A stretch of 13,218 nt of DNA from Promethearchaeota archaeon (GTDB lineage Archaea; Asgardarchaeota; Hermodarchaeia; Hermodarchaeales; Hermodarchaeaceae). The stretch lies in the NCBI GenBank assembly GCA_048939245.1, contig JBHLPR010000062.1, positions 1 to 13,218 of the forward strand, given 5' to 3'. A model generated the notes under the pieces. That model worked only from the letters and a program-made list of their open reading frames with translations. It was not told where the DNA came from and did no database searches. The first letter of the stretch is position 1; each line of letters begins with the position of its first letter. The position numbers and the translations under genes are program-made. This document shows, piece after piece, positions 1 to 13,218 of this stretch.

Positions 1-750
1 ATCTTGTTTTGCGAAGAGCGCGTAAGCTGCAGAGTCGAACATATCACAGCCCATTGCTACAATTAGTGGGAAAAGAACCGGGTGCCCAGCACCAAAGAGA
101 TGAACCGGTTTATCAAGAGGGAGATTGTTTTTTGCGCTTAGGACTAAATCGACTAGTTTATCGAATTGGTACTGTTCCATAAGCTGGGTTGGGCTTCCTA
201 TTGCGTAAATAGAAAAATCAAGTTTACTTATAGCATGAGCTGATTGCTCTACCAATTTCGGGTAAGTCCCTCCTTGAATTGGACCAACCCATAAAATGTT
301 GGATTTTTGGCGTTGTGAAATTGAAGCCTTCGCTCTTCGCAGAGTTTCTTCTACGGTTAATTGAGCTTCATTATAGGTCGCCTTACCACCTGTAGGAACA
401 TCTAGTATGACTGCAATGTCAGTTTCAATCTTTTCTTGAAATTGAATGATTTGTTCAGGAGTGGTTTGAACATCTCCGTAAATTAATAACTGGTATGCCC
501 CCGAATCAGTCATAATTGATCCAGGAAAATTAAGTATGTCATGGATTGAACCTTTACATTCGGCTTTTGAAAGTAAGTAAGCATTTGTTATGATGATTTG
601 ACAATCGAAATCTTGAAACATTTTTTGTGGTGGTATAAGCTCATTCGTTGGATGAACTACCGGAATGAATGTGGGTGTTTCAACCAAACTGCTCTTAGTC
701 CGAAACCTACCAATTCGTGCAAGTAAGTCTTTTTGAATGGTTTCAATCAT
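1..750 (-). CDS. tgtA: Archaeosine tRNA-guanine(15) transglycosylase, N-terminal 250 codons (runs off the window start)
   Basis: Not in the ORF track. Manual translation from ATG at 750 gives MIETIQKDLLARIGRFRTKSSLVETPTFIPVVHP...IIITNAYLL...IMTDSGAYQLLIYG...ILDVPTGG...GPIQGG...PVHLFGAGHP...GCDMFDSAAYALFAK, which carries the archaeal TGT motifs. Confidence 0.95.
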   Translation of the reverse strand, partial: MIETIQKDLLARIGRFRTKSSLVETPTFIPVVHPTNELIPPQKMFQDFDCQIIITNAYLLSKAECKGSIHDILNFPGSIMTDSGAYQLLIYGDVQTTPEQIIQFQEKIETDIAVILDVPTGGKATYNEAQLTVEETLRRAKASISQRQKSNILWVGPIQGGTYPKLVEQSAHAISKLDFSIYAIGSPTQLMEQYQFDKLVDLVLSAKNNLPLDKPVHLFGAGHPVLFPLIVAMGCDMFDSAAYALFAKQD

Positions 751-764
751 TGCAAACGCGACTT

Positions 765-1211
765 TTAGGAAGGCTCTTCTTCTTTTGCTTCTTGTTCTTC
801 AACAAATCGTGTGTATACTTTCCGAATTCGGTCTGCAAGTGGTCCTGTACCTTCTACTCCTTGTTCGGTCACGCGAACCTTATTAAGCACGACAATGACT
901 CGTGCGTCTTCAAGGAACCGAACCTCCCCAGGAGGAAATAATGTTTCAAGCTGCTCAGCTAATCCTTTCAAATCAAACGGGTCCTCGGTCTTTACAAGCT
1001 CAAGAATCGTATGACCTGTAATTAAAATCCGATGAAAAAGATTTCCTTTCTTATCGCGTGCTTCACCTAAGACAATACTTAGAGTGGAAGGATCATACCC
1101 ACGCATTTTTCCTGTAAGGGATTTTCCAGTATTGGTTCTCACTATAACTGTGGCTCCTATCAAAGAGGCCAATTCTTTGAAAAAGTGTCGAGCCCCTGTA
1201 CTTTGTGACAT
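765..1211 (-). CDS. Lsm/Sm-like RNA-binding protein with C-terminal domain (SmAP3 type)
   Basis: Sm1 motif (LIGATVIVRTNTGKSLTGKMRGYDPSTLSIVLGEA), Sm2-like RILITGHTI and a ~70 aa C-terminal domain (FDLKGLAEQLETLFPPGEV...GVEGTGPLADRI). GGAGG lies 7 nt upstream of the ATG, and the gene is directly upstream of tgtA. Confidence 0.88.
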   Translation of the reverse strand: MSQSTGARHFFKELASLIGATVIVRTNTGKSLTGKMRGYDPSTLSIVLGEARDKKGNLFHRILITGHTILELVKTEDPFDLKGLAEQLETLFPPGEVRFLEDARVIVVLNKVRVTEQGVEGTGPLADRIRKVYTRFVEEQEAKEEEPS

Positions 1212-1258
1212 TTGGTGTCCTCCAGATATTCTTGTTTTGAGTAGTGATTATCCATCCG

Positions 1259-1268
1259 TTTTTATATG
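1259..1268. promoter_or_regulatory. Candidate TATA box in the divergent Lsm/rpo8 intergenic region
   Basis: TTTTTATATG, which is TATA-like on both strands, within a 95-bp divergent gap. Confidence 0.4.
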
Positions 1269-1306
1269 TTGTTAAGTCACATTATGAGGTGTTTAGTTTA
1301 GGTTAG

Positions 1307-1660
1307 GTGATGTATTTGGTTTCCGGAAATGGTACTATTGATAAACGTGAAACTCCGCTGACCCAAGTATCTCAATATTCTATCAAAGTTGGTAAAAGAC
1401 TTCAGATTGATTTTGAGTTACCAAATAGTATAAACTCCCTTCAGAACGGACAGAAGGTCAATGTGTCAATCACAACTAGTAAACCAAAGAAAGCACAGAA
1501 GCTTCTTACGCTTCGAGGCGAAGTCTATGAAATAGAGAAGACAAAATCAGGTACGAACTATGTGATTTTCTTTTCAGGTCTACAGGGTAGTATTATTGCG
1601 AAACGACGAATCCCAGGAATAAAGGTGAAAAAACCAATATACCTCTCAATAACTAAGTGA
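1307..1660 (+). CDS. rpo8: Probable RNA polymerase subunit Rpo8 (RpoG / RPB8 homolog)
   Basis: 117 aa, beta-rich OB-fold-like pattern: IDFELP...GQKVNVSIT...LRGEVYEIE...VIFFSGLQG...PIYLSI, compared with RPB8 'G.vY...SfGGLL...vYl.i'. The tgtA-Lsm-rpoG-tfb neighbourhood resembles that of Sulfolobales. Confidence 0.7.
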   Translation: MMYLVSGNGTIDKRETPLTQVSQYSIKVGKRLQIDFELPNSINSLQNGQKVNVSITTSKPKKAQKLLTLRGEVYEIEKTKSGTNYVIFFSGLQGSIIAKRRIPGIKVKKPIYLSITK

Positions 1661-1827
1661 TAGTGACATCAGATCAAAGCCTTACTTTCTCTATTACCGC
1701 TTGAATAGTTTCGGTGATGTGTCTCCCTGTGTAAGATAAGCTATTGAGCGGACAAAACGTCCTGTGTGTACAAATTTAGTCGTTGTTGGAAGGGATAGTA
1801 GTTCCCCAAAAGTTTGGTTAAGAACAG

Positions 1828-1863
1828 CATCACTTTGAGAATACGAATCGGCTCAAAGTGATG
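1828..1863. repeat. Perfect 12-bp inverted repeat just upstream of the TFB-like gene
   Basis: CATCACTTTGAG (1828-1839), a 12-nt spacer, then CTCAAAGTGATG (1852-1863). It ends 5 nt before ATG 1869. Confidence 0.85.
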
Positions 1864-1868
1864 ATTAG

Positions 1869-2870
1869 ATGGATAATCTACACTGTTCTGAATGTTCAGG
1901 TCACACCATACTTACAAATGGGGAATATGTGTGTGCAACCTGTGGATTGGTAGTGGCGCGCCAGATAGTTAGTTCACCTTACCAGATGCATAAGGAGGAG
2001 GGGGGTTCTTCTTCGCATTCTAAGTCATACGTTGCTTTGGGAAAACGCTCTGTCATGGTAGGGGGATTGGGAAGCTTCATTGATTACCAAGCTAGTCGCT
2101 TCTTCTATGACCAAACGGGTCGGCCTTTAACTCCGCGGAGACAGCGATTGTTTCGAAGGCTCAAGTATGATTATAATCTTCGTGTTCGAATCGCTAAACG
2201 AGAAACAACTTATCGTGCATTAAGATCCCTAAGTCGAGTAGCGGATTTGCTCTCTTTAACAGAGGGGATCAAGGATAGGGCGGCCTACTACTATCAGAAG
2301 ATGGATAAGAAGCTTGACAATAGTGATATCACAAGCCATCTAACACTAATGGCTTATGGTTTAATGTTGGCAGTACGCGAGTCCAAAGAAAATGCCCCTA
2401 TTACGCTCCAAGAAATTGCGGAGGCTTTTCGGAAGCTTGGTCATCGAGTAACAAGTCGCTCTATTATTCGTCAAGCCCTTTCAGTAAAGAAGAAGATTCC
2501 ACTTGCACCAGTAAAGAGATCAAGCGAGGATTATCTACAACGTATCGTGTCACAGACGGTGAACCATCCTATGATAAGTCTAAGGCTACGACGCGCCGGC
2601 TTGACAGCACAGAAATATCAAGCGCAGTTAATTAAATTCGCTAACCAGTTGTTCGGTAGAATCAGCGTCCCTGAGCGCGGAGGAAGGAATCCATTCATCT
2701 TTGCTGTTGCAGTTGTTTATAGTGCAGATTTATTGATTGCAAAAATGGCAAAACGCCGCCCAATTCTCACTCAACGGTTGGTCTCCAAGGCCACAGAAGC
2801 CGCGGAGTACAGTGTACGAGATCATTATGCCAAATTGTTAAAACCGCACATTCTCAAGATGCTACCCTAG
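1869..2870 (+). CDS. tfb: Divergent transcription initiation factor IIB (TFB) family paralog
   Basis: N-terminal Zn ribbon (CSEC...GEYVCATCGLVV) and two cyclin-like repeats (LSRVADLLSLTEGIKDRAAYYY...ITLQEIAEAF; GRNPFIFAVAVVYSA...LTQRLVSKATEAAEYSVRDHY). Confidence 0.85.
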   Translation: MDNLHCSECSGHTILTNGEYVCATCGLVVARQIVSSPYQMHKEEGGSSSHSKSYVALGKRSVMVGGLGSFIDYQASRFFYDQTGRPLTPRRQRLFRRLKYDYNLRVRIAKRETTYRALRSLSRVADLLSLTEGIKDRAAYYYQKMDKKLDNSDITSHLTLMAYGLMLAVRESKENAPITLQEIAEAFRKLGHRVTSRSIIRQALSVKKKIPLAPVKRSSEDYLQRIVSQTVNHPMISLRLRRAGLTAQKYQAQLIKFANQLFGRISVPERGGRNPFIFAVAVVYSADLLIAKMAKRRPILTQRLVSKATEAAEYSVRDHYAKLLKPHILKMLP

Positions 2871-3104
2871 TACAAGCTGTGTTATGTGGAGCATTATTAC
2901 AACAATAGTAAATAGAGAGAAAAGTAAGACTGGCTGAAAAGTCGATATACCAGCAATCCAAGCGAGATAGATGACGAACGGCATTGATGTGATTATTGTC
3001 CCTGAAATCAATGCCAGAGTAGTAAAGTCATTAGTTACTGACTGGATGATTAACAGAAGAAACCAACTATAAAGAACAAGCCTAAGTATCTGGAAGAGAA
3101 GCAT
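2862..3104 (-). CDS. Small hydrophobic membrane protein (about 3 TM), probable pilus accessory
   Basis: 80 aa, almost entirely hydrophobic. A strong SD (GGAGGT) lies 6 nt before the ATG and overlaps the stop of the upstream 3116..3511 gene. Confidence 0.65.
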   Translation of the reverse strand: MLLFQILRLVLYSWFLLLIIQSVTNDFTTLALISGTIITSMPFVIYLAWIAGISTFQPVLLFSLFTIVVIMLHITQLVLG

Positions 3105-3115
3105 TCGATAACCTC

Positions 3116-3511
3116 CTATAGTGGCTGAAAAGTCAATTGAATTGCTGATTGAGTTGCATTGATTAAAAGTAGATAATACCCTGACTGATTCAATCCAGAT
3201 ATCATTAGTGACGATCTATAAGTTCGTGTTATTATGTGCCAGCTATCAAGATAAACTTTGAAGATGAGTTGATTATTAACAGCTTCAAGTGTTAAGTTAG
3301 CCGGAACGAAAATCTGTGTTGTTAGACAAGTTTGTTCATGATCAGCTGAAAGAATCAATTCGTCAAGATTCTGAACAAATTGTTGAAAAGCAATTGCTTG
3401 TTCAGACTGGTGAAGTAACTGACCTGTATTGAAAAGCAGAGGCACCCCTATTGTAACTAGAAGGCTAAGGTTTAATCCAATGATTACGATTTTTTCTAAA
3501 CTCTGATTCAA
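3116..3511 (-). CDS. Single-pass membrane protein, minor-pilin-like
   Basis: TTG start, N-terminal QSLE followed by a hydrophobic helix (IVIIGLNLSLLVTIGVPLLF), an amphipathic helix and a beta-rich C-terminal domain. Divergent from the pilus ATPase. Confidence 0.6.
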   Translation of the reverse strand: MNQSLEKIVIIGLNLSLLVTIGVPLLFNTGQLLHQSEQAIAFQQFVQNLDELILSADHEQTCLTTQIFVPANLTLEAVNNQLIFKVYLDSWHIITRTYRSSLMISGLNQSGYYLLLINATQSAIQLTFQPL

Positions 3512-3541
3512 TTTACTCTCATATGTTTCCAGGTTAAAAGA

Positions 3542-3581
3542 AATTTAAAGTCCTATTTCTGAGATTTTTTTGCTTTAAATA
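3542..3581. promoter_or_regulatory. Back-to-back divergent TATA boxes of the pilus locus
   Basis: ATTTAAAG (3543-3550) and CTTTAAAT (3573-3580) form an inverted pair. Each lies about 30 nt upstream of a start codon (TTG 3511 on -, ATG 3611 on +). Confidence 0.6.
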
Positions 3582-3595
3582 GAATTCTCTGAATT

Positions 3596-5671
3596 ATGTC
3601 CACGGTAATAATGGTTTGTCCTTTCCAAATTATCAAAGACGAAAAGGGTTCGAAAATATTAGCATTCAGTTGTGAAATATGTTCATGTCAAGACCCACAA
3701 AAAGGTGATATCATTGATAACGAGTATTGCCGCCAGCAGTTTCTTAAGATACTACCATTTTTAGAAGAGATTTTTACTTGTCAATTTACTTCCAGTACCA
3801 GAACGGTTAGTCTCCCCCGTCGATCAACAGAACTTCTGAAAGAGTATGTTTTGGTTGTTGAAAAATTAGAACCACATATTCAAAAAATCGTTTATCATTT
3901 CCCTGAGATAAGAGAGAAATTATTTACGGAGCCATTCTCAACCTTCAAAATTCTTGAACAGACCTACAAATCCTCAAAGGAGCGATCAATCCTAGAAATT
4001 ATTTCAGCATTAGTAAAAACGAGGTTAATTTCAAATGCAAAGAATCAGATTAGAGATGATGGTTTAACAGATCAAAAGCTCTTTCTTGAAAATTATTTAC
4101 AAATTCAGAAAAGCCCCCTAAAATATTCGAGCGATAAACTCTTCGAAGAGCCTTTTGAGCTTCTTAGCACATATGAAGTGGGACCATTTAGAGCTAGTAT
4201 TTTTGAATTTGCTCAATTCCCTCTAGAAAAATTCTATCAAGTTGTATTATCATTAGATGAAATTCACTCTCAAGGTTTATTACAAACCCTGTTATCGCAC
4301 CGAAGACAATTTTCCTTAGAAGAAGCTGAGCTTCAAAAATTGGATGCCCTCATATCCTCTAAGATTACTGATTTTACACAAAACCTTATGACAACTTTCA
4401 AAGAATTATCCAGCACTGAACAAAAGAATTTCTCAATCTATGCCATTGCACAGATTCTAAATTTAACCAAGACCTTACCACTTTTACTTGATGATGAGGT
4501 TCAGGAAATTTTCCTTGATAAACCGGGGACAGCATATTATATTGATCATGCTATCTGGGGTCGGTGTAAAACAAATCTTATCCCATCACAATCGGAGTTA
4601 TCACATATTATTACAAGATTGCGTCTTGAAAGCAGAAGACCTCTGGATGAAAAGAATCCCTCGTTAAAAACTGAACTAAAAACTGCGCTATTTCATGTTC
4701 GTGCAGCGATTGACATTCCCCCTCTCGCTTATGAAGGAGCGCACCTCAATATCAGAAAAATCCGATTACGTACCTTGACTCTACCAGAATTGGTTGCCAA
4801 TGGCACCATTTCCCTTTCAGCAGCCGCATTCCTCGTTTTATGTATGAATTTACGAATAAACATCACAATTTGTGGTGAACCGGCAACTGGTAAGACAACT
4901 CTAGCAAATGCAATTAACCTTATAGCTCCTCCCAATTGGAGGAAAATTGCTATTGAAGATACACTCGAAAGTATTTCTTTTGATGAAGGAAATAGACACA
5001 AAGTAACCTTTCAAGTTGCGCCCTTTGATTCATTCGACCAAACGCAATCAACAAAATCTAATGAAATAATCAGGTTACTGCACCGATCTCCTGATTGGGT
5101 ATTTTTAGGAGAAATTCAAACTGCAGAGCATAGTTCAGCAATGTTTCATGCGATTAGCGCAGGTATCAGAGGAATTCAGACCTGCCATGCAAATTCTAAT
5201 CAAGAGCTTTTATTGCGTTGGCAAGTCCATCACGATATACCCGAAGTGTGTTTTCAATCTCTTGGTTTACTTGTTCATATGGTGAAAGAAGTAATTCGGG
5301 GCCAAGTTAATCGTAAAGTTGCTCAGATTAGTGAGGTCCAATTTGATTCAGGCAATGTTACTTTAAAACCCATTTTCGAATGGAATAACACGTCAGGACA
5401 GCTCGAACAAATAGTGTCTGATTTATATTCACAGCTTATTTCTCGAACATGTAAGTTTCAACGGTTGAAACAAGTAGATATTCGAAAACAGCTTTGCCTT
5501 TATCAAGAAACGTTAGCGAAACTTGTATCCAAACATATCTATGATCCTGAATTAATTGTAAAGACCTTTGATGAGACATATGCGTCCAAAAGCCCATCGG
5601 TATCAGATATTGTGAAAATACATAAAGAGCGAAAAGAAGGTGAAAAATCTTCGATTATATCAGTTCACTAG
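3596..5671 (+). CDS. Type II/IV secretion / type IV pilus assembly ATPase (VirB11/TadA/ArlI superfamily); true start may be ATG 3611
   Basis: LLLDDEVQEIFLD, LNIRK, Walker A GEPATGKTT, Asp box IAIEDTLE, Walker B region LHRSPDWVFLGEIQ, His box IQTCHA, and a Cys-rich N-terminus (CEICSC...C). Confidence 0.93.
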   Translation: MSTVIMVCPFQIIKDEKGSKILAFSCEICSCQDPQKGDIIDNEYCRQQFLKILPFLEEIFTCQFTSSTRTVSLPRRSTELLKEYVLVVEKLEPHIQKIVYHFPEIREKLFTEPFSTFKILEQTYKSSKERSILEIISALVKTRLISNAKNQIRDDGLTDQKLFLENYLQIQKSPLKYSSDKLFEEPFELLSTYEVGPFRASIFEFAQFPLEKFYQVVLSLDEIHSQGLLQTLLSHRRQFSLEEAELQKLDALISSKITDFTQNLMTTFKELSSTEQKNFSIYAIAQILNLTKTLPLLLDDEVQEIFLDKPGTAYYIDHAIWGRCKTNLIPSQSELSHIITRLRLESRRPLDEKNPSLKTELKTALFHVRAAIDIPPLAYEGAHLNIRKIRLRTLTLPELVANGTISLSAAAFLVLCMNLRINITICGEPATGKTTLANAINLIAPPNWRKIAIEDTLESISFDEGNRHKVTFQVAPFDSFDQTQSTKSNEIIRLLHRSPDWVFLGEIQTAEHSSAMFHAISAGIRGIQTCHANSNQELLLRWQVHHDIPEVCFQSLGLLVHMVKEVIRGQVNRKVAQISEVQFDSGNVTLKPIFEWNNTSGQLEQIVSDLYSQLISRTCKFQRLKQVDIRKQLCLYQETLAKLVSKHIYDPELIVKTFDETYASKSPSVSDIVKIHKERKEGEKSSIISVH

Positions 5672-6474
5672 CTTATCTAGGAAAACGAGTTCCAGGAAGC
5701 CGATACATATTAGCACGCTTTTCTTCTTCTGAATTTTGTGAAGCCATTGAAATCCTCTACCAGGGTTCCGTTAATCCCTTCCACATTCAGAGTGGTATAA
5801 TGATTCTTAGTGTGACAAGTAGCGGTATCCTCACACTTCTTCTTAGTCTGTTTCTTCCTATTCTTAGCGCTTTGGTGTTAGGTATTACAATTGGCTTGGT
5901 GATCTGGTTAATTCTCTTGAACAAGATTCTTGTCAAATATCATAAGCAGTTGGTACAAATAGAAAGAGCAACACCATATGTTTTGGAAGAATTGGTCACG
6001 CTCTTTACAATTACAGGTTCTGTTTTTGAATCGATAGAATATGTATCGAAAGGAGAGCATGGTGCTATTTCATCTGCATTTGCAGAGATGATAGAACCAT
6101 TAAACTTGGGCGTCCCCCCAGAACAACTGCTCCGAAAGTATGCTATCACTCAACCGTCAATAACACTTCGAAGAGGACTTCTCACCTTTATCCAGTTCAT
6201 CGAGTCTTCGGTTGCGAATCTTGAGGCTGTAATAAGCGATGCCCATGAAAATCTCCAAAGAAAATATGAAAGAAGAACATTGCAATGGGAAAGTCGGATG
6301 ATGATAATTGTAGGCGTACTTGTATTTTTACCGATTATTTTCATTTTAGGCATAGCTATCCGAGGGTTAGCAAATCAGCCATTGATTCTGGTTCTTCCGA
6401 TTTTTCAGTTTATACTCTCAAAGATAATGATATCAGCGCTTCTACCAAAAGAAATGATATTATTGGGGGAATAA
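5647..6474 (+). CDS. T2SSF/TadB-TadC-like pilus membrane platform protein, part 1 (first ATG 5800; frame open from 5644)
   Basis: Two TMs, then a T2SSF-like cytoplasmic domain (PYVLEELVTLFTITGSVFESIEYVSKGEHGAISSAFAEMIEPLNLGVPPEQLL...RRGLLTF), then two TMs. Directly downstream of the ATPase. The start is uncertain. Confidence 0.8.
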   Translation: MFDYISSLAYLGKRVPGSRYILARFSSSEFCEAIEILYQGSVNPFHIQSGIMILSVTSSGILTLLLSLFLPILSALVLGITIGLVIWLILLNKILVKYHKQLVQIERATPYVLEELVTLFTITGSVFESIEYVSKGEHGAISSAFAEMIEPLNLGVPPEQLLRKYAITQPSITLRRGLLTFIQFIESSVANLEAVISDAHENLQRKYERRTLQWESRMMIIVGVLVFLPIIFILGIAIRGLANQPLILVLPIFQFILSKIMISALLPKEMILLGE

Positions 6475-6477
6475 AAA

Positions 6478-7137
6478 ACGCAACCGCCAGACGATGAATT
6501 TGATCAATTTCTTGATTTTCTTACACACCTTTCAACAGAACTTGCCTTTGGAACTAGTCCGGAATACGCATTAGTTAGAACTTCGCAATACTTTGGGACC
6601 CAAACACCCTGTTATATACTTGAAGCGTTGAATTCAATTATCAAGGGTACAAAAACATTTCAGGCGGCATGGTCGGAGTTAGTAACAAAATACAATCATA
6701 ACCGAAATTCGCGTTTACTTGAATTACTTGGTCGTTTTGTGAAGAAAGGGTCAGTTACTGGTGGAGAAAGAATGCTAGAAGTCCTTAAACAGATTCGGAA
6801 AAATAGCGCAATGACGAAAGATAGGAAGAACTTGATTAACAGCCAAAAGGTAAAGGTATTTGCACTTTCTTTCGTCTCCTCAATCGTTATTGGTTTAATT
6901 ACTGCTATAGCCCCCTTACTAGACTTCACATTTTATCAAGACCTATGGACCACCTCGTATGTCCACTCCAACTCGATTTCATTTTATATTCTAATCGCAT
7001 CATTTCTAACTGTTATTATCACAGGATACCGTCTCAACCAAACCGTCAGCGGATCTATTAGAACAGTATCGATTAACTTGATCGCGTTTGGGTGTACCTT
7101 CATTCTTATATCCCATCTTTTATTATCCTTCATCTAG
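6478..7137 (+). CDS. T2SSF/TadC-like pilus membrane platform protein, part 2 (track start TTG 6628 truncates the domain)
   Basis: Same frame as part 1 and open from 6475: KTQPPDDEFDQFLDFLTHLSTELAFGTSPEYALVRTSQYFG...IIKGTKTFQAAW...LLELLGRFVKKG, followed by three TMs. Confidence 0.78.
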   Translation, partial: TQPPDDEFDQFLDFLTHLSTELAFGTSPEYALVRTSQYFGTQTPCYILEALNSIIKGTKTFQAAWSELVTKYNHNRNSRLLELLGRFVKKGSVTGGERMLEVLKQIRKNSAMTKDRKNLINSQKVKVFALSFVSSIVIGLITAIAPLLDFTFYQDLWTTSYVHSNSISFYILIASFLTVIITGYRLNQTVSGSIRTVSINLIAFGCTFILISHLLLSFI

Positions 7138-7144
7138 TGTGGGG

Positions 7145-7152
7145 CTTAAATA
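7145..7152 (+). promoter_or_regulatory. Candidate TATA box of the pilin gene
   Basis: CTTAAATA ends 31 nt upstream of ATG 7184 and resembles the CTTTAAATA box upstream of the ATPase. Confidence 0.5.
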
Positions 7153-7183
7153 TCTCAAAACAGACTGATTCTTGGGACCCATT

Positions 7184-7399
7184 ATGAGATTATTAGATTT
7201 GTTAAAAAAATTCGTCCATAATAAAAGAGGATCGCCACTTGTCGAGCAGGGACTTCTTTTGGGATTAGCTATCCTAACCATTACGATTTTGATTACAGTG
7301 GTCCTTGATGTCATGGGATGGTCCCAAGGACTCTTTCAGTCGATTGTCATTCAACTAGACCAATTGAAACAGGCCTTTCTCAGTGGCTTTGGTGGATAA
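7184..7399 (+). CDS. Short Flp-like type IV pilin with class III signal peptide
   Basis: MRLLDLLKKFVHNKRG|SPLVEQGLLLGLAILTITILITVV: basic leader, Gly at -1, Glu at +5, hydrophobic helix, about 55 aa mature length. Confidence 0.85.
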   Translation: MRLLDLLKKFVHNKRGSPLVEQGLLLGLAILTITILITVVLDVMGWSQGLFQSIVIQLDQLKQAFLSGFGG

Positions 7400-7426
7400 A
7401 ACACAGGCAATTTACCATATACTGAT

Positions 7427-8752
7427 TCAGGAACTTGAAGCTGATTCGATCTTTTTTAGACCCAAGCCGCGTAAGGGTTCATTGCTGGAAATACTTGGAT
7501 TAATTAATGTAATTGATGGTTCTGGTTCACTTTCTGTCTTAACCTGTGCTGAATCAAGTTGTGTCCCAGATATCTTGTCAAGATTCACCGAATTAGCTGT
7601 TTGAGACTCGAGAGATATATTCCCTTCAATGTGCACAGCATCACTTGCAATTGAGTCTAAACGATAGAGTTGAAGAGCATTCCAATCGACATCCTCAAAG
7701 ATCTCTATGTTTCCTCGAAAACCAGGAAGGACGGAGGAATTGCCTTCTAGCCCTGTCACAATTAGAAGAACCCTAACGTACCCAGCAAAATCGGGTATGA
7801 TTCTTGCACCCCAAATTATTCTCGCATCGTGTCTCATTTGCCTAGTCACAACATCAGCCACACGTGTGGCCTCTTCAAGGCTTAAATCAGGACCGCCAAT
7901 TACATGAATTAGCGCACCAGTAGCCCCCTTCACACTTAAATCGCCGAGTAGAGGAGAATGGAGCGAATTCTTCACAGCTTCGGAAATCCGATCGTAATCC
8001 TTATTTTCTGACTCGGATGCTTCTCCTAATCCCACTAAAGCCACTCCTCCTCCTGCCAATACGCTTCGAACGTCTGCAAAATCAAGATTGATTAAACTTG
8101 GCAGACTAATCGTTTCAGTAACTCCTTTCACCATACTCGCAAGAATTTCATCTGCAACACTAAATGCTTCATCGATTGGAAGATCACGAGCAATTTCGAG
8201 TAGCTTGTTATTATCAATAACAATAACTGTATCTGCGTATCTTCGTAGGCGTTGAAGACCTCGATGAGCTTTATCAATCCTAGCACCTTCAATTGTAAAA
8301 GGTGTGGTCACTGTACAAACAACAATTGCGCCATTTTGCTTTGCAATTTCAGCTATGACGGGAGCAGCCCCGGTACCTGTCCCTCCTCCAAGACCTGCTG
8401 CAATGAAAAGGAGGTCAACTCCGCGTAACAAATTTGTTAAATCTTGACGTGATTCTTCAGCGGCCGCAGCCCCTAACTCTGGAAATCCGCCTGTACCCAA
8501 TCCTCTTGTAATCGTTTTTCCAATTAGCATTTTTTTATGGGCTTGTACGTAATCAAGATGCTGTTGATCTGTATTAACGGCGATGCATTCAGCACCTTGA
8601 ATTCCAATTTGAACTAGCCTGTTTATCGTGTTGTTACCACCACCGCCAATGCCTGCCACCATTATCCGAGCACCGGGTTTTGAATAATGTGGAGTTGATT
8701 TTGCTGGACGTTGAGCGGCATCACGTACAAGTTTCGATAATCCACTATTCAT
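7427..8752 (-). CDS. ftsZ: Cell division GTPase FtsZ (FtsZ2-like by cdrS synteny)
   Basis: [13 protein letters not shown], tubulin signature [22 protein letters not shown]7 loop [23 protein letters not shown] lies 6 nt upstream and includes the cdrS stop. Confidence 0.97.
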
Positions 8753-8758
8753 ACTTAT

Positions 8759-8926
8759 TCACCTTATTGTTGGTTTTGGCGAAATTTGCTCCCAGAGTTC
8801 CTTTTTCAGAAGATCTCTTACTGCAATTCGAATCGCTTCACTGCGATTGGGGTATAACTTCTCAACAATCAAACGCTCGATTCCACTTACATACGCTTCA
8901 GGAAGATTTACAGTAATTAGCTTCAT
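8759..8926 (-). CDS. cdrS: Ribbon-helix-helix regulator, CdrS-like cell division regulator
   Basis: MKLITVNLPEAYVSGIERLIVEKLYPNRSEAIRIAVRDLL contains the YPNRSEAIR.AVR RHH signature. It lies immediately upstream of ftsZ, as in the conserved archaeal cdrS-ftsZ2 operon. Confidence 0.87.
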   Translation of the reverse strand: MKLITVNLPEAYVSGIERLIVEKLYPNRSEAIRIAVRDLLKKELWEQISPKPTIR

Positions 8927-8947
8927 GTCTATCGGAGTCACTACTAG

Positions 8948-9334
8948 ATATTATCCTGAAAAGCTCCTAGTATTATCGGGGTATTACCGCATAGTAAAAG
9001 TATAGTGTACAATAGGCGGATTGAAATTAATCAACGATGCTATCGGGTTTATTTGCCAAATGACCGGAAAATAGCTAGTATTACCTTCTTTGAGAGGCTA
9101 TTGAACGGAGTATCAGTTATTTCCAGTCCTGAAAAGCGAGTATAAAATGAGTCCAAGTGAACGGACCTTTCTTCTAATGGATTGGCGCCAATTGGTTGCC
9201 TTAAGCACATCAAAAGATCCCCACTTTTAAGGCATGTTTGATCTAAAAATTTCTATTCTAACTCTATTACACAAATCGTTTACTATATTCTCAATGGAAT
9301 TTCTTTTAATACAGAGGCTTGTTATGATATTATC
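8948..9334. repeat. Recurrent RTATTAYC direct repeats in the cdrS/tRNA intergenic region
   Basis: ATATTATC 8948, GTATTATC 8970, GTATTACC 8981, GTATTACC 9078, ATATTATC 9327. Confidence 0.55.
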
Positions 9335-9338
9335 CGCT

Positions 9339-9353
9339 GATAAAGTTTAAAAA
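9339..9353 (+). promoter_or_regulatory. BRE/TATA promoter of tRNA-Leu
   Basis: Purine-rich GATAAAG followed by TTTAAAAA (9346-9353), ending 33 nt before the tRNA 5' end. Confidence 0.6.
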
Positions 9354-9386
9354 GCGAGGAGAGCACCAGGGAATGAATTCTCCGCT

Positions 9387-9502
9387 GCGGGGGTACCCGA
9401 GCATGGTCTAAGGAACATGGGTTTCATGTTCCGATTAAAGGGGCAGGACTGAGGCTCCTGTGGTGTAGACCTTCGTGGGTTCGAATCCCACCCCCCGCAC
9501 CA
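9387..9502 (+). tRNA. tRNA-Leu(GAG) with D-loop intron and encoded CCA
   Basis: Acceptor GCGGGGG/CCCCCGC + A + CCA; anticodon arm CAGGA-CTGAGGC-TCCTG (GAG at 9451-9453); long variable arm; T arm GTGGG-TTCGAAT-CCCAC. The D arm CCC...GGG is restored after removing 9411-9438. Confidence 0.95.
9411..9438 (+). other. 28-nt tRNA intron at non-canonical position 21/22
   Basis: Central helix GGTC(9405-9408)/GATT(9433-9436), 3-nt bulges TAA(9409-9411) and AAA(9437-9439), and an 8-bp intron stem GGAACATG/CATGTTCC. Confidence 0.85.
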
Positions 9503-9512
9503 CTCGCAAAAA

Positions 9513-9537
9513 TTTGAGTTTTGTTGGTTTTTATAGA
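9513..9537 (+). terminator. T-rich tRNA terminator overlapping a candidate TATA box for the roadblock operon
   Basis: TTTGAGTTTTGTTGGTTTTTATAGA directly after the tRNA, with TTTATAGA at 9530-9537. Confidence 0.45.
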
Positions 9538-9542
9538 GTAAA

Positions 9543-9563
9543 ATGCTCCAACTGGTGGAGCAT
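9543..9563. promoter_or_regulatory. 8-bp inverted repeat, candidate operator or SD-masking hairpin
   Basis: ATGCTCCA-ACTGG-TGGAGCAT lies between the TATA-like box and ATG 9571. Confidence 0.55.
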
Positions 9564-9570
9564 AAAGAGA

Positions 9571-10497
9571 ATGCCAGGTAGTATGATAGATCAATTCAAT
9601 TTACATTTACGAAATATCAAAGCTGTTCCTGGCGTGGAAAACTCGGTTTTAGTTCAAAGAGATGGATACCCTATTACAAGTAGTGGTGTTTGGTTATCAG
9701 AAAATGAGATTTTTGGCTTATCTTCATCCTCTGCTGCAATTCTATCAGTGGCACAACGACTTCACGATGATTTATCATATATTCTAATTGAAGGTGAACG
9801 GAGTAAATTCCTTTTAGCTACGCTTCCTCGGTCAGCAAATTATTTTATTACCGTAACCACGCAAAGTCAAAGTAATCTGGGAGCTCTGTTATTACAACTG
9901 GAAAAAGCAATCAGACAATTAGATGAGACACTTTGGAATGAACAGTTTATTCCACCTTTAAGATCCTTTGAAACCTCTCAACGTAATAAGATACGGAATG
10001 CATTCAATGTTCGAGAAGGCACTCAACGTAGTTGGTCTACTGGGACTCTAAATTTGAGTATCACTGAAAATGCTGCGCATCAAATAACTGCAATTGTCAG
10101 CGATTTTCTTCAGGCCTTACCATCTGCTCAAACAGGTGAAGTATGTCTCGAAGGAGGTTACTTAATTCCTACACAGAGATATAACGAAGGAATGCGACTT
10201 CGCAATTCCACATTAACTTACACTCTCTTTGATACTTCTAGAAAAGTTGCGCAGCTAGTCAAACGGACAGAGCTAATTCAGGTTTTATGTGATTGTGGAT
10301 CGACACAGCACTTCATTTATCGATTAGCTGGTGGTCTTTTTAGTACGCTAATTCGGAAAGATGACACTCGTCTAGGTTTGCTGAGATTAATAATACCTAA
10401 TTTCATCGCAGAAATCGAATCAGTATTGCAAAAGGCACCAGCAAAAGAAAAGCCTACCTTAGATGTGGATGGTTTTTTGGAGGCAATCGCTCGATGA
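9571..10497 (+). CDS. Tandem roadblock/LC7 (MglB-like) domain protein (start ATG 9571 or 9583)
   Basis: Domain 1: VPGVENSVLVQRDGYPITS...SAAILSVAQRL...ILIEGERSKFLL...NLGALLLQLEKAIRQL. Domain 2 is degenerate: LPSAQTGEVCLEGGYLI...LFDTSRKVAQ...QVLCDCGSTQHFIYRL...RLGLLRLII. The track start GTG 9475 lies inside the tRNA. Confidence 0.85.
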   Translation: MPGSMIDQFNLHLRNIKAVPGVENSVLVQRDGYPITSSGVWLSENEIFGLSSSSAAILSVAQRLHDDLSYILIEGERSKFLLATLPRSANYFITVTTQSQSNLGALLLQLEKAIRQLDETLWNEQFIPPLRSFETSQRNKIRNAFNVREGTQRSWSTGTLNLSITENAAHQITAIVSDFLQALPSAQTGEVCLEGGYLIPTQRYNEGMRLRNSTLTYTLFDTSRKVAQLVKRTELIQVLCDCGSTQHFIYRLAGGLFSTLIRKDDTRLGLLRLIIPNFIAEIESVLQKAPAKEKPTLDVDGFLEAIAR

Positions 10498-11384
10498 GTA
10501 CATTTCTAGATAATGGTTTGTACACCTTAGGACGAAGGCAACTCGCAATCGTATTACGTTCAGTATTGGATAGATATCCGATAGTCATATTCAGTGAATC
10601 ACAAGAGCCAATAGATGCCATTTCTGAGTCTTTAGTAAAATTAGTGCCACACCGTCGTGAGATGGTATTTGGATCGGATTTTGTTTCATCTTCAGAACAT
10701 GAGCAGTTAGTCCTTCATGAAAAAAGTGACTATAACGGAGAACGAATAATTTATCGTGCTCCATCATCCGCTGCACAACTAGTATCGAACCAGATAATTG
10801 ATTTCAGAGGATGGATCATTGCTACCAGTGAAAGAAATTTGCACGAAATCGAGAATGCTTGTATCCAAACCTCAGCTTCTCCATTGATTTTACGATGTAA
10901 AGAAGGAAAACTCACAATAGAATCTAATGGAAACTCGGACTTATTTTCCGATACCAGCTTTGAATTAAAGCTATTAGAAAAAGTCACATCCGAAACCCGA
11001 ACAAGGATTGAAAGAATAACTCGAATCCTAAAACGAGCTGCAAAAGGAAAAGTAAGTGAACGACTTGAAAGAAGTCTTGTCGACCTTAATCATGAGGAGG
11101 ATAGAGTTCGACAAAGTCTATACAGGGAACATATTCAGACTTTTGTTGAAGCAGCATGGAGAGTTATGATTATTCTAATGCGTCTTCGTTTATTACAAGG
11201 AGTTGGAGTTAAGTCAGTGTTATCTGATAAAATGCTACGCCAAGCTGTTGATTACAAGGGAGCTTCAATCGATCGATTGATGGAATTCATTAAAGCGGAA
11301 TGGGGCGAGGACTTCCAAACTTCTGTAGAAGACGGGGTAGGACAAACCTTTGGGGATCGATTAGAAGGATTTTGGACAATTTAG
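10494..11384 (+). CDS. Hypothetical protein, alpha/beta N-domain plus helical C-domain, possibly DENN/folliculin-C-like
   Basis: 296 aa, ATGA overlap with the roadblock gene, no TM segment. The N-terminal pattern LAIVLRSVLDRYPIVIFSES...IDAISESLVKLVP is reminiscent of the cDENN core start. The gene call is firm; the family call is tentative. Confidence 0.75.
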   Translation: MSTFLDNGLYTLGRRQLAIVLRSVLDRYPIVIFSESQEPIDAISESLVKLVPHRREMVFGSDFVSSSEHEQLVLHEKSDYNGERIIYRAPSSAAQLVSNQIIDFRGWIIATSERNLHEIENACIQTSASPLILRCKEGKLTIESNGNSDLFSDTSFELKLLEKVTSETRTRIERITRILKRAAKGKVSERLERSLVDLNHEEDRVRQSLYREHIQTFVEAAWRVMIILMRLRLLQGVGVKSVLSDKMLRQAVDYKGASIDRLMEFIKAEWGEDFQTSVEDGVGQTFGDRLEGFWTI

Positions 11385-11405
11385 TGATCTCAGAAGGAAA
11401 GATAT

Positions 11406-11996
11406 ATGCTGATTGATTGGAGTCAACGCATTATTCAAACGAAACTGGTCTATTACGGTCCTGCAATGAGTGGAAAAACCGCTAGTATTCGAGCCTTATT
11501 TCACCGCCTCAATATTCTATCACGATTAGAATCAATAGAAACAACTTCAGGAAGAACTCTCTTTTTTGATTATGGTCCAATTGAACTATCCCATGGTGAA
11601 TGGATCATTCAGATCCATATTTGGTCAGCCACTGGACAAGATTATTATGCAGAGACTCGTTCGACAGTTCTCGCAGGAACTGATGGAATCGTTTTTGTGG
11701 CAGACTCGAATCCACAGTTAATAAGTGAGAATCAACGTTGTTGGGAAGAACTCAGGGGGTTCTTCGGAGATAGACTTACAGAAGAAGTTCCTGTCGTGTT
11801 TGCATTGAATAAGCGAGACATCTGGCCTGCAATAAGCCGGATTGATTTCATTAATACACTGGGGTTGAATGGAACGTCACAAATCTTTGAAACCGTTGCG
11901 ATCCAAGGTTCATTTACTCTCGAGATTTTACAAACCATTTTGAGAAAAATATTACTGGGATCGAATCTTGCACAACCCAAAAAGATAGGAACCTAG
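11406..11996 (+). CDS. mglA: MglA-type small Ras-like GTPase
   Basis: KLVYYGPAMSGKT (G1), RTLFFD (switch I with intrinsic Arg), SATGQDYY (G3 lacking Asp, as MglA TVPGQ), GTDGIVFVADS, NKRD (G4), ETVA (G5). Confidence 0.88.
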   Translation: MLIDWSQRIIQTKLVYYGPAMSGKTASIRALFHRLNILSRLESIETTSGRTLFFDYGPIELSHGEWIIQIHIWSATGQDYYAETRSTVLAGTDGIVFVADSNPQLISENQRCWEELRGFFGDRLTEEVPVVFALNKRDIWPAISRIDFINTLGLNGTSQIFETVAIQGSFTLEILQTILRKILLGSNLAQPKKIGT

Positions 11997-12036
11997 GTTC
12001 ACATCTCCAATTACTATAATATTGGAGAATAGGAAC

Positions 12037-12915
12037 ATGCAGATTTCTTTCTTAGAGGACATAGTAGTAACACTTCTACGTTTGGCAGTGACAGATTTAC
12101 CGCAAGATGTAACTGAAAGTCTCGAACACGCTTTTAAAAAAGAGAGAAATATGACCGCAAAAAGCCAATTGAAAGCGATTTTAGACAATATCAGCCTTGC
12201 TAGAACACAATCAATTCCAATGTGCCAAGATACGGGGATTCAGATATTCTACTTAACTGTCGGGTCCAAATTTCCTTTGATAGACCATCTCCCAACGATT
12301 CTCGAACGCGCGGTTCAAAGAGGAACGCAGGAAATTCCCTTACGCCCTAATACTGTCAATCCTATTTTGCATAAGAATCCTGGAAACAATACTGGTCTTT
12401 ATATTCCTTGGATTAATTGGAAAATCGTCAAGGGAACTGAACTGAAGATTACTACATTTCCTAAGGGGGGTGGTTCAGAAAATGTCTGTCGATTAGGAAT
12501 GCTAACCCCAGGGCAAGGAATGAAAGGGATGAAGCAATTTGTCATCGATTCAATAATAGAAGCAGGGGCTAAACCTTGCCCACCCACAATTCTTGGAATA
12601 GGTATAGGTGGCGGTGCCGATATCTGTATGAAGATTGCTAAGGAACAACTGATTCGACCCGTGGGAGAACGTCACCCAAATCAAAAAATTGCTGCAATGG
12701 AAGAAGAACTGCTTTCCGCCATTAACCAAACAGGTATTGGTCCAATGGGACTTGGGGGAGATACAACAGCCTTAGATGTACACATCGATATCGCAATGAG
12801 ACATCCTGCATCCTTTCCTGTTGGTCTTGCTGTTCAATGTTGGGCTGCAAGACGCGCCTCCGCCCTGATTACAGAAGATGGAAACGTTCAATTTACTTCT
12901 CATAAGGTAGAATAA
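12037..12915 (+). CDS. Class I Fe-S fumarate hydratase / L-tartrate dehydratase, alpha subunit
   Basis: PMCQDTG, LRPNTV, PKGGGSEN, KPCPP, GIGGG, GIGPMGLGG, RHPAS, VQCWAARR. ATG 12037 is preferred over TTG 12022 because GGAG/AGGA lie upstream. Confidence 0.95.
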   Translation: MQISFLEDIVVTLLRLAVTDLPQDVTESLEHAFKKERNMTAKSQLKAILDNISLARTQSIPMCQDTGIQIFYLTVGSKFPLIDHLPTILERAVQRGTQEIPLRPNTVNPILHKNPGNNTGLYIPWINWKIVKGTELKITTFPKGGGSENVCRLGMLTPGQGMKGMKQFVIDSIIEAGAKPCPPTILGIGIGGGADICMKIAKEQLIRPVGERHPNQKIAAMEEELLSAINQTGIGPMGLGGDTTALDVHIDIAMRHPASFPVGLAVQCWAARRASALITEDGNVQFTSHKVE

Positions 12916-12916
12916 G

Positions 12917-13218
12917 ATGGTAACCTATAATCTAACTACCCCAATCTCAGAAGAAGACATAAGAAAAGTACGTGTAAATGACATTGTATACATCACTGGC
13001 ACAATATTTACTGCTCGTGATGAAGCACATGAAAGGGCTTTGGAATGGTTCAAAAATGAAAAACAGCTCCCAATTGATCCCAATGGATTAGCTGTTTTTC
13101 ACTGTGGACCCATCGTTCGAAAAACAGAATCCGGTTGGGAGATTGTAGCAGCAGGTCCGACGACAAGCACACGAATGGAAATGTTTGAAGACAAATTCAT
13201 CGAAGCCTATAGAGTACG
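12917..13218 (+). CDS. Class I fumarate hydratase / tartrate dehydratase, beta subunit (runs off the window end)
   Basis: Manual translation: MVTYNLTTPISEEDIRKVRVNDIVYITGTIFTARDEAHERAL...VFHCGPIV...AAGPTTSTRME. Confidence 0.93.
   Translation, partial: MVTYNLTTPISEEDIRKVRVNDIVYITGTIFTARDEAHERALEWFKNEKQLPIDPNGLAVFHCGPIVRKTESGWEIVAAGPTTSTRMEMFEDKFIEAYRV

Follow-up and report, generated by a model that had tools for sequence, protein, structure and literature searches.

Liu, Makarova, Koonin, Li et al. (bioRxiv 10.1101/2020.10.19.343400; Nature 2021) described an operon 'conserved in most Asgard archaea' which combines the genes of a Roadblock-superfamily protein, a non-Rag small GTPase and a DENN-domain protein. 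It was labelled there as LAMTOR1-like Roadblock protein, Rab-like small GTPase and DENN-domain protein. A GEF-like role (GEF, guanine nucleotide exchange factor) was proposed, and further DENN paralogues as well as folliculin-like architectures were noted. In later papers DENN domains are listed among the Asgard trafficking homologues, or DENN-fold matches are set aside as common. Here we analyzed a stretch of 13,218 nucleotides from a Promethearchaeota archaeon of the Hermodarchaeaceae (GenBank assembly GCA_048939245.1, contig JBHLPR010000062.1, positions 1 to 13,218, forward strand), which we will call the window from now on. One of its genes encodes the protein P0001. This protein is probably the DENN-fold subunit, without a longin domain, of an Asgard three-gene module which consists of a tandem-roadblock protein (an MglB-like pseudo-dimer), the DENN protein and an MglA-type GTPase. 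The genes for the Roadblock, DENN-fold and non-Rag GTPase proteins are adjacent on the plus strand, and the arrangement is conserved in most Asgard lineages. The operon is already known: it matches that of Liu et al. (2020/21) by the text description of its gene content, distribution and interpretation. A preliminary description of the window had called P0001 an unknown protein, which holds for Pfam and NCBIfam and not for the literature.

The open reading frame (ORF) of P0001 is a real gene. The peptides LAIVLRSVLDRYPIVIFSESQEPIDAISESLVKLVP, RIIYR, GWIIAT, PLILR, LTIE and the C-terminal FGDRLEGFW were all found in its translation. At E ≤ 1e-3 the protein has 64 homologues with a length of about 292–298 residues. 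Where named, these come from metagenome bins of Asgard archaea with the labels Promethearchaeota, Thor-, Hod- and Hermodarchaeota, and they are annotated as 'hypothetical protein' in the source databases. When 1.8 billion representatives were searched with a profile, 95 clusters were obtained (82/95 at E ≤ 1e-10). Two alignments were employed, a narrow one of 30 close-family sequences with a mean column identity of 70% (A1) and a wider, more diverse family alignment (A2). Across the wide family R27, P29, R54, E76 and W107 are conserved, with R54 as the sole invariant residue. In the C-terminal tail G281, D288, G292 and W294 are invariant in A1, and G287, R289, L290 and E291 are nearly so. Comparison of P0001 with Pfam and NCBIfam gave no match, the best being GPAT_C at an E-value of 0.065. 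A profile search of the PDB sequences retrieved only GGDEF proteins (E 0.2), which were taken as chance hits.

The structure of P0001 was predicted with AlphaFold2 using an alignment. The resulting model is confident and showed a predicted local distance difference test score (pLDDT) of 85.5 and a predicted template modelling score of 0.83. It consists of a cDENN-like α/β core and a dDENN-like all-helical domain. The core is built from helices (H) and strands (E) in the order H14–25, E30–34, H37–49, E54–58, H66–78, E84–89, H91–100, E107–112, H113–125, E131–136 and E139–144, with the sequences ERIIYR, WIIATS, LILRCK and KLTIES for the strands 84–89, 107–112, 131–136 and 139–144, respectively. 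The second domain comprises the helices 155–183, 189–195, 199–236, 245–252 and 259–270. In the C-terminal tail, the last two blocks of ten residues had mean pLDDT values of 67 and 62. The preliminary description had proposed a helix-strand-helix start, later strands and a helical C-terminal half. All of these reappear in the model: the start as its first three elements, the strands as placed, and helices over residues 155–270.

The model was compared with 48,161 PDB representative chains using a structural aligner. This search revealed DENN-family proteins as the best matches: folliculin (6nzd_H, Z 11.6, 186 residues aligned with a root mean square deviation (rmsd) of 3.5 Å, model residues 2–272 versus folliculin 347–558; and 3v42_B, Z 11.5, 186 residues), DENND10 (8p0v_M, Z 11.3, 187 residues), C9orf72 (7o2w_A, Z 10.0, 204 residues), DENND1A (6ekk_A, Z 9.6, 192 residues) and SMCR8 (6lt0_B, Z 9.3, 191 residues). 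DENND1B was also among the top matches. The alignments with FLCN, DENND10, C9orf72, DENND1A/B and SMCR8 span both the α/β core and the helical domain. They end at model residues 269–282 overall (272 for FLCN, 275 for DENND10, 276 for DENND1A and 282 for C9orf72). Foldseek against the PDB found DENND1A and DENND1B at a probability of 0.99. The DENN core is described as a minimal P-loop-like topology which lacks nucleotide-binding residues (Zhang et al. 2012). Inspection of the P0001 sequence revealed neither a Walker A motif (GxxxxGK[ST]) after strand 1 nor a Walker B motif. The loop after strand 30–34 reads SESQEPID and has the family consensus G-D/N-S-x-E, without GK[ST]. In its predicted structure P0001 is thus organized as a DENN module, with a three-layer α/β core of P-loop-like topology that is free of nucleotide-binding motifs and a helical dDENN domain directly after it. 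The cDENN/dDENN-like layout suggested in the preliminary description is supported by these matches. The structural comparison it had named as a check gave DENN proteins as top matches over the α/β core and the helical domain, and a result with unrelated folds only was not seen.

At the sequence level, residues 5–54 of the family member P0071 matched positions 6–55 of Pfam Folliculin_C with an E-value of 0.015, below the cut-off; this was one of 33 diverse members. The match covers the N-terminal helix-strand-helix motif. A search of 301 Asgard genomes with Folliculin_C yielded five ORFs of 308–362 residues in the genome families f4 and f20, one of them just above the Pfam cut-off (27.2–27.7 bits). 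In these five ORFs the match begins at about residue 141–214, and in two of them a weak longin match (Fuz_longin_1, E 0.004–0.016) lies ahead of it. These ORFs are therefore the folliculin-like longin+DENN proteins mentioned by Liu et al. When A2 was compared with the Asgard longin+Folliculin_C proteins by hhalign, the N-terminal motif was matched with probabilities of 77.8% (53 columns) and 80.5% (41 columns). With A1 the probability was 4.6%; the local match was seen with A2 only. The folliculin-like motif noticed by eye in the preliminary description is weakly supported by the P0071 and hhalign matches, and Pfam does not report it for P0001 itself. Overall, the sequence-level support is thin but consistent.

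The P0001 chain opens at the cDENN core, with only about 13 residues before helix 1. The alignment with folliculin starts at model residue 2; at this point the C-terminal (DENN) domain of folliculin enters the alignment with its residue 347. Therefore, there is no space for a longin domain in P0001. Of 95 representative relatives from a length-unrestricted profile search, none exceeds 434 residues or extends at its N-terminus far enough to accommodate a longin domain. Longer fused forms were also sought with A2, and none was found; this was a weak test with a length window of 761–2170 residues that was skewed by one long member. The absence of a longin domain claimed in the preliminary description was confirmed by the folliculin alignment and by the length of the relatives. 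Since there is no longin domain in the same chain, P0001 is a cDENN+dDENN protein and not a full tripartite module of uDENN/longin, cDENN and dDENN.

The coordinates of P0001, its domains, the neighbouring genes of the module and the related genes discussed below are listed in Table 1. A GGAGG sequence lies at 10479–10483, about 10 nucleotides upstream of the DENN start. The coordinate of the ATGA junction is the same in 12 of the close loci L001–L015. In other Asgard families the gap between the roadblock and DENN genes is about 20–80 nucleotides, the ATGA overlap being specific to the P0001 clade. A spacer of 21 nucleotides separates the DENN stop from the GTPase start. The GTPase P0003 was compared with the PDB chains by phmmer and matched MglA (3t12_A) with an E-value of 1.3e-26, and Arf1 with just 3e-5. 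The invariant motifs of the GTPase in alignment A4 are the P-loop GPAMSGKT, RTLFFD with R50, TGQ with Q78, and NKRD.

Table 1: Features of the module in the window and of related genes at other Asgard loci (L numbers).
Feature	Coordinates	Strand	Basis or remark
Tandem-roadblock protein P0162, single chain, 308 residues	9572..10497	+	upstream gene
ATGA overlap, roadblock stop / DENN start	10494..10497	+	read from sequence
DENN-fold gene P0001, without longin	10494..11384	+	open frame, 296 codons and TAG stop
cDENN-like α/β core, residues about 14–152	10533..10949	+	AlphaFold2 secondary structure, DENN-core alignments
dDENN-like all-helical domain, residues about 155–272	10956..11309	+	AlphaFold2 helices, DENN alignments
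Conserved C-terminal tail (G281...FGDRLEGFWTI)	11334..11381	+	A1 conservation; low-confidence AlphaFold2 model
MglA-type small GTPase P0003, 196 residues	11406..11996	+	downstream gene
Longin+Folliculin_C-like proteins	L054–L082, e.g. L081 1483–2463, L055 1081–2091
DENN-DENN pairs	L018 3094–4930; L019 942–2972; L051 175–2246; L053 1102–2744

At 15 named-Asgard loci the genes follow the order roadblock, DENN, GTPase wherever the flank suffices. The three genes were found in unchanged order at 29 further loci (30 with that of the window) from nine genome families. In whole-genome searches, 164 of the 301 Asgard genomes sampled had the DENN family, usually as a single copy; among the 90 high-quality genomes the number was 66. 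By genome family the distribution is close to all-or-none. The DENN family is present in f6 (74/76), f9 (57/68), f1 (14/18) and f2 (4/4), and was not found by this search in f4 (0/29), f21 (0/21), f13 (0/11), f27 (0/11) and f20 (0/3). In most of the f9 loci (L021–L039, L047) the opposite strand carries a second small-GTPase gene with a match to the MglA profile, about 700 nucleotides past the operon GTPase. Distant DENN paralogues with about 20% identity to P0001 occur as adjacent same-strand DENN-DENN pairs without roadblock or GTPase genes. Such pairs were seen at 4 of the 8 distant-paralogue loci examined and are reminiscent of the DENN:DENN heterodimers FLCN-FNIP and C9orf72-SMCR8.

The ATGA overlap and the 21-nucleotide spacer suggest that the three proteins of the operon would be made together, and the roadblock protein, the DENN protein and the GTPase may form one GTPase switch. 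By analogy to MglB, the roadblock pseudo-dimer would serve as the GTPase platform and probable GTPase-activating protein (GAP), with the GTPase supplying its own catalytic Arg and Gln as in MglA. The DENN protein would dock on the roadblock-GTPase pair and control its nucleotide state. How it might do so can be proposed only tentatively. Our first choice is an exchange factor that acts via its core, as DENND1 does for Rab35. A non-catalytic scaffold or co-GAP, comparable to the DENN halves of FLCN-FNIP2 and C9orf72-SMCR8, appears slightly less probable than that. A complex prediction of the three chains, made with alignments and with the DENN protein as the scored partner, gave a score of 0.01 against a mark of 0.32, a value that bears neither way on binding.

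Alternatively, P0001 could be a DENN-fold effector or localisation adaptor which binds the GTP form of the MglA-type GTPase or the roadblock protein. It would then link the switch to an output such as the membrane, the cytoskeleton or the pilus machinery instead of regulating the nucleotide cycle. We consider this unlikely, though it has several points in its favour. The roadblock pseudo-dimer alone could provide GAP activity, like MglB, and the GTPase retains the Arg50 and Gln78 of MglA. The P0001 tail FGDRLEGFW, near-invariant and poorly ordered in the model, may resemble a docking peptide. DENN domains are structural and not catalytic in FLCN-FNIP2 and C9orf72-SMCR8, which also fits an adaptor. 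For these complexes catalytic longin domains have been described (PMC12290439). Moreover, a recent paper (PMC13408092) argues that RomRX, the supposed GEF of MglA, is an effector. On the other hand, a GEF-like role is favoured by Liu et al., and no gene in the window indicates a particular output.

Several observations weigh against the assignment of P0001 as a DENN-fold regulator. No DENN-family Pfam model matched P0001 significantly, and the hhalign link is local (41–53 columns), with a moderate probability. In Foldseek the E-values were weak at 0.014–0.018, none being ≤ 0.001. By Z-score the DENN proteins exceed the P-loop ATPases by a small margin (11.6 versus 10.2), and the FlaI and GspE chains align as far as residue 259. 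A common descent with the eukaryotic DENN proteins is suggested mainly by the predicted structure. The catalytic arginine of FLCN and SMCR8 resides in the longin domain, not in the DENN domain; therefore, the fold does not imply catalysis by P0001. Finally, a literature search yielded no biochemical or structural study of the Roadblock-DENN-GTPase operon.

The matches to ATPases raise the question of a degenerate P-loop NTPase-like domain of the VirB11/GspE/FlaI or RecA/AAA+ type. P0001 would then be an Asgard-specific adaptor that has lost nucleotide binding, and its likeness to DENN would stem from a shared three-layer α/β arrangement and not from descent. The Foldseek top rows by E-value, which are ABCF, ClpB and clamp-loader chains, as well as the missing Pfam DENN match agree with this. 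However, these rows have rmsd values of 17–22 Å and were treated as noise, in contrast to the probability obtained for DENND1A/B. Six DENN-family structures stand at or near the top of the structural search with 174–204 residues over both domains, whereas the ATPases mostly align over about 130 core residues; such matches to the core are expected because the true DENN core is itself P-loop-like. With both Walker motifs missing, a local sequence link that leads to Folliculin_C and not to an ATPase family, and roadblock and small GTPase partners as is typical of DENN/longin systems, the degenerate NTPase is very unlikely.

The preliminary description had further proposed a split DENN module, in which the longin role is provided in trans by the roadblock protein. 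A DENN fold without longin was indeed found, and the in-trans role is plausible on the basis of gene adjacency and order and of the 4-nucleotide ATGA overlap in the P0001 clade. The adjacency is conserved, the order roadblock-then-DENN mirrors the eukaryotic order longin-then-DENN, and the two genes appear to be coupled in translation in the window. Full-length folliculin-like fused proteins were seen in f4 and f20 (29/29 and 3/3 genomes with a match), the families in which no DENN-family member was found. A tandem-roadblock orthologue was not found in f4/f20; only single-domain roadblock matches occurred in five genomes, two of them single-contig. The distribution of the fused proteins and the operon looks complementary, a pattern that was spotted post hoc in related genomes. 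Against the in-trans role, roadblock and longin are circularly permuted relatives and not the same domain (Zhang et al. 2012), and the roadblock partner carries two roadblock domains and no longin. The tie of the fused proteins to the P0001 family is a local match of 80% probability. No roadblock or MglA gene was found within about 1.5 kb of the FLCN-like fused proteins, and therefore these are not a fused version of the operon.

It is conceivable, if doubtful, that the eukaryotic longin-DENN regulators go back to such a split arrangement, in which the tandem roadblock and DENN proteins were still unfused, though co-translated, and acted on an MglA-type GTPase. The first role of the DENN fold would have been that of an exchange factor or co-regulator of MglA-like GTPases, and the fusion with longin would have followed later, as in the FLCN-like proteins of the two Asgard families that lack the operon. 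In that case, the operon would contain the first DENN domain acting beyond the Rab, Rag and Arf families and would offer a minimal three-protein system to learn what a DENN domain does.

The window contains further genes. Directly after the GTPase gene and on the same strand, the α and β genes of a class I fumarate hydratase are located at 12022–13216 (Pfam Fumerase, E 1.6e-95; Fumerase_C, E 8.2e-23). Fumarase genes follow the GTPase in every locus L001–L014 of the clade and not in other Asgard families. A tRNA-like sequence occupies 9385–9502, upstream of the roadblock gene; besides an acceptor stem it has a GGTTCGAATCC T-arm and CCA, and about 28 nucleotides appear to be inserted. ARAGORN and Rfam, applied to the window, called no tRNA at this stretch (9385–9500). 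The ORF listed from GTG 9475 owes its spurious N-terminal extension to this sequence, which is kept upstream of the roadblock gene in relatives, with residues 1–32 of that ORF aligned by tblastn at several loci. Further upstream, a gene at 7427–8752 on the minus strand was judged to be FtsZ-like by its tubulin-type GGGTGTG signature. Beyond ftsZ, the plus strand at 3596–7137 contains a large ORF resembling secretion/pilus-type ATPases (P-loop GEPATGKT) together with membrane-protein ORFs. In other genomes the operon shows no linkage to the FtsZ-like and pilus-type genes. The idea of P0001 as a pseudo-ATPase of the pilus-type locus was dropped, as ftsZ separates this locus from P0001, which in all other genomes accompanies the roadblock and GTPase genes.

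DENN and longin/roadblock proteins govern the Rab, Rag and Arf switches which organize eukaryotic membranes, and their origin is part of the question of eukaryogenesis. The operon is a compact three-protein version, and its reconstitution in vitro could be used to study the function of a DENN domain on its own. It is the module as a whole, published in 2020/21, that has this value, and the P0001 locus is only a further copy of it. What our analysis adds is a structure-based confirmation, a count of the distribution and hints on fused and paired paralogues.

Compared with the known systems, folliculin and the FLCN-FNIP2 complex (3v42, 6nzd) possess their own N-terminal longin domain with the catalytic arginine and a second longin-DENN partner, and act on Rag GTPases on Ragulator. 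In contrast, P0001 has no longin domain, occurs in single copy, and is accompanied by a tandem-roadblock partner encoded by a separate gene and by an MglA-type GTPase. DENND1A and DENND1B (6ekk, 3tw8) contain a fused uDENN/longin lobe and are Rab exchange factors (Rab35), whereas an exchange activity of P0001 is only proposed by analogy. No significant sequence similarity was found between P0001 and these two proteins. The MglA-MglB switch of Myxococcus and Thermus (3t12, 6hjm) has no DENN-fold component, unlike the Asgard module, and the third players of the bacterial system, RomR/RomX, RomY and MglC, are unrelated folds or single roadblocks. The operon of Liu et al. agrees with the P0001 locus in its three kinds of genes, the non-Rag GTPase, the DENN protein without fused longin and the occurrence in most Asgard lineages. 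Its GTPase was called Rab-like, whereas P0003 scores as MglA-type; otherwise, there is no difference of substance between the two.

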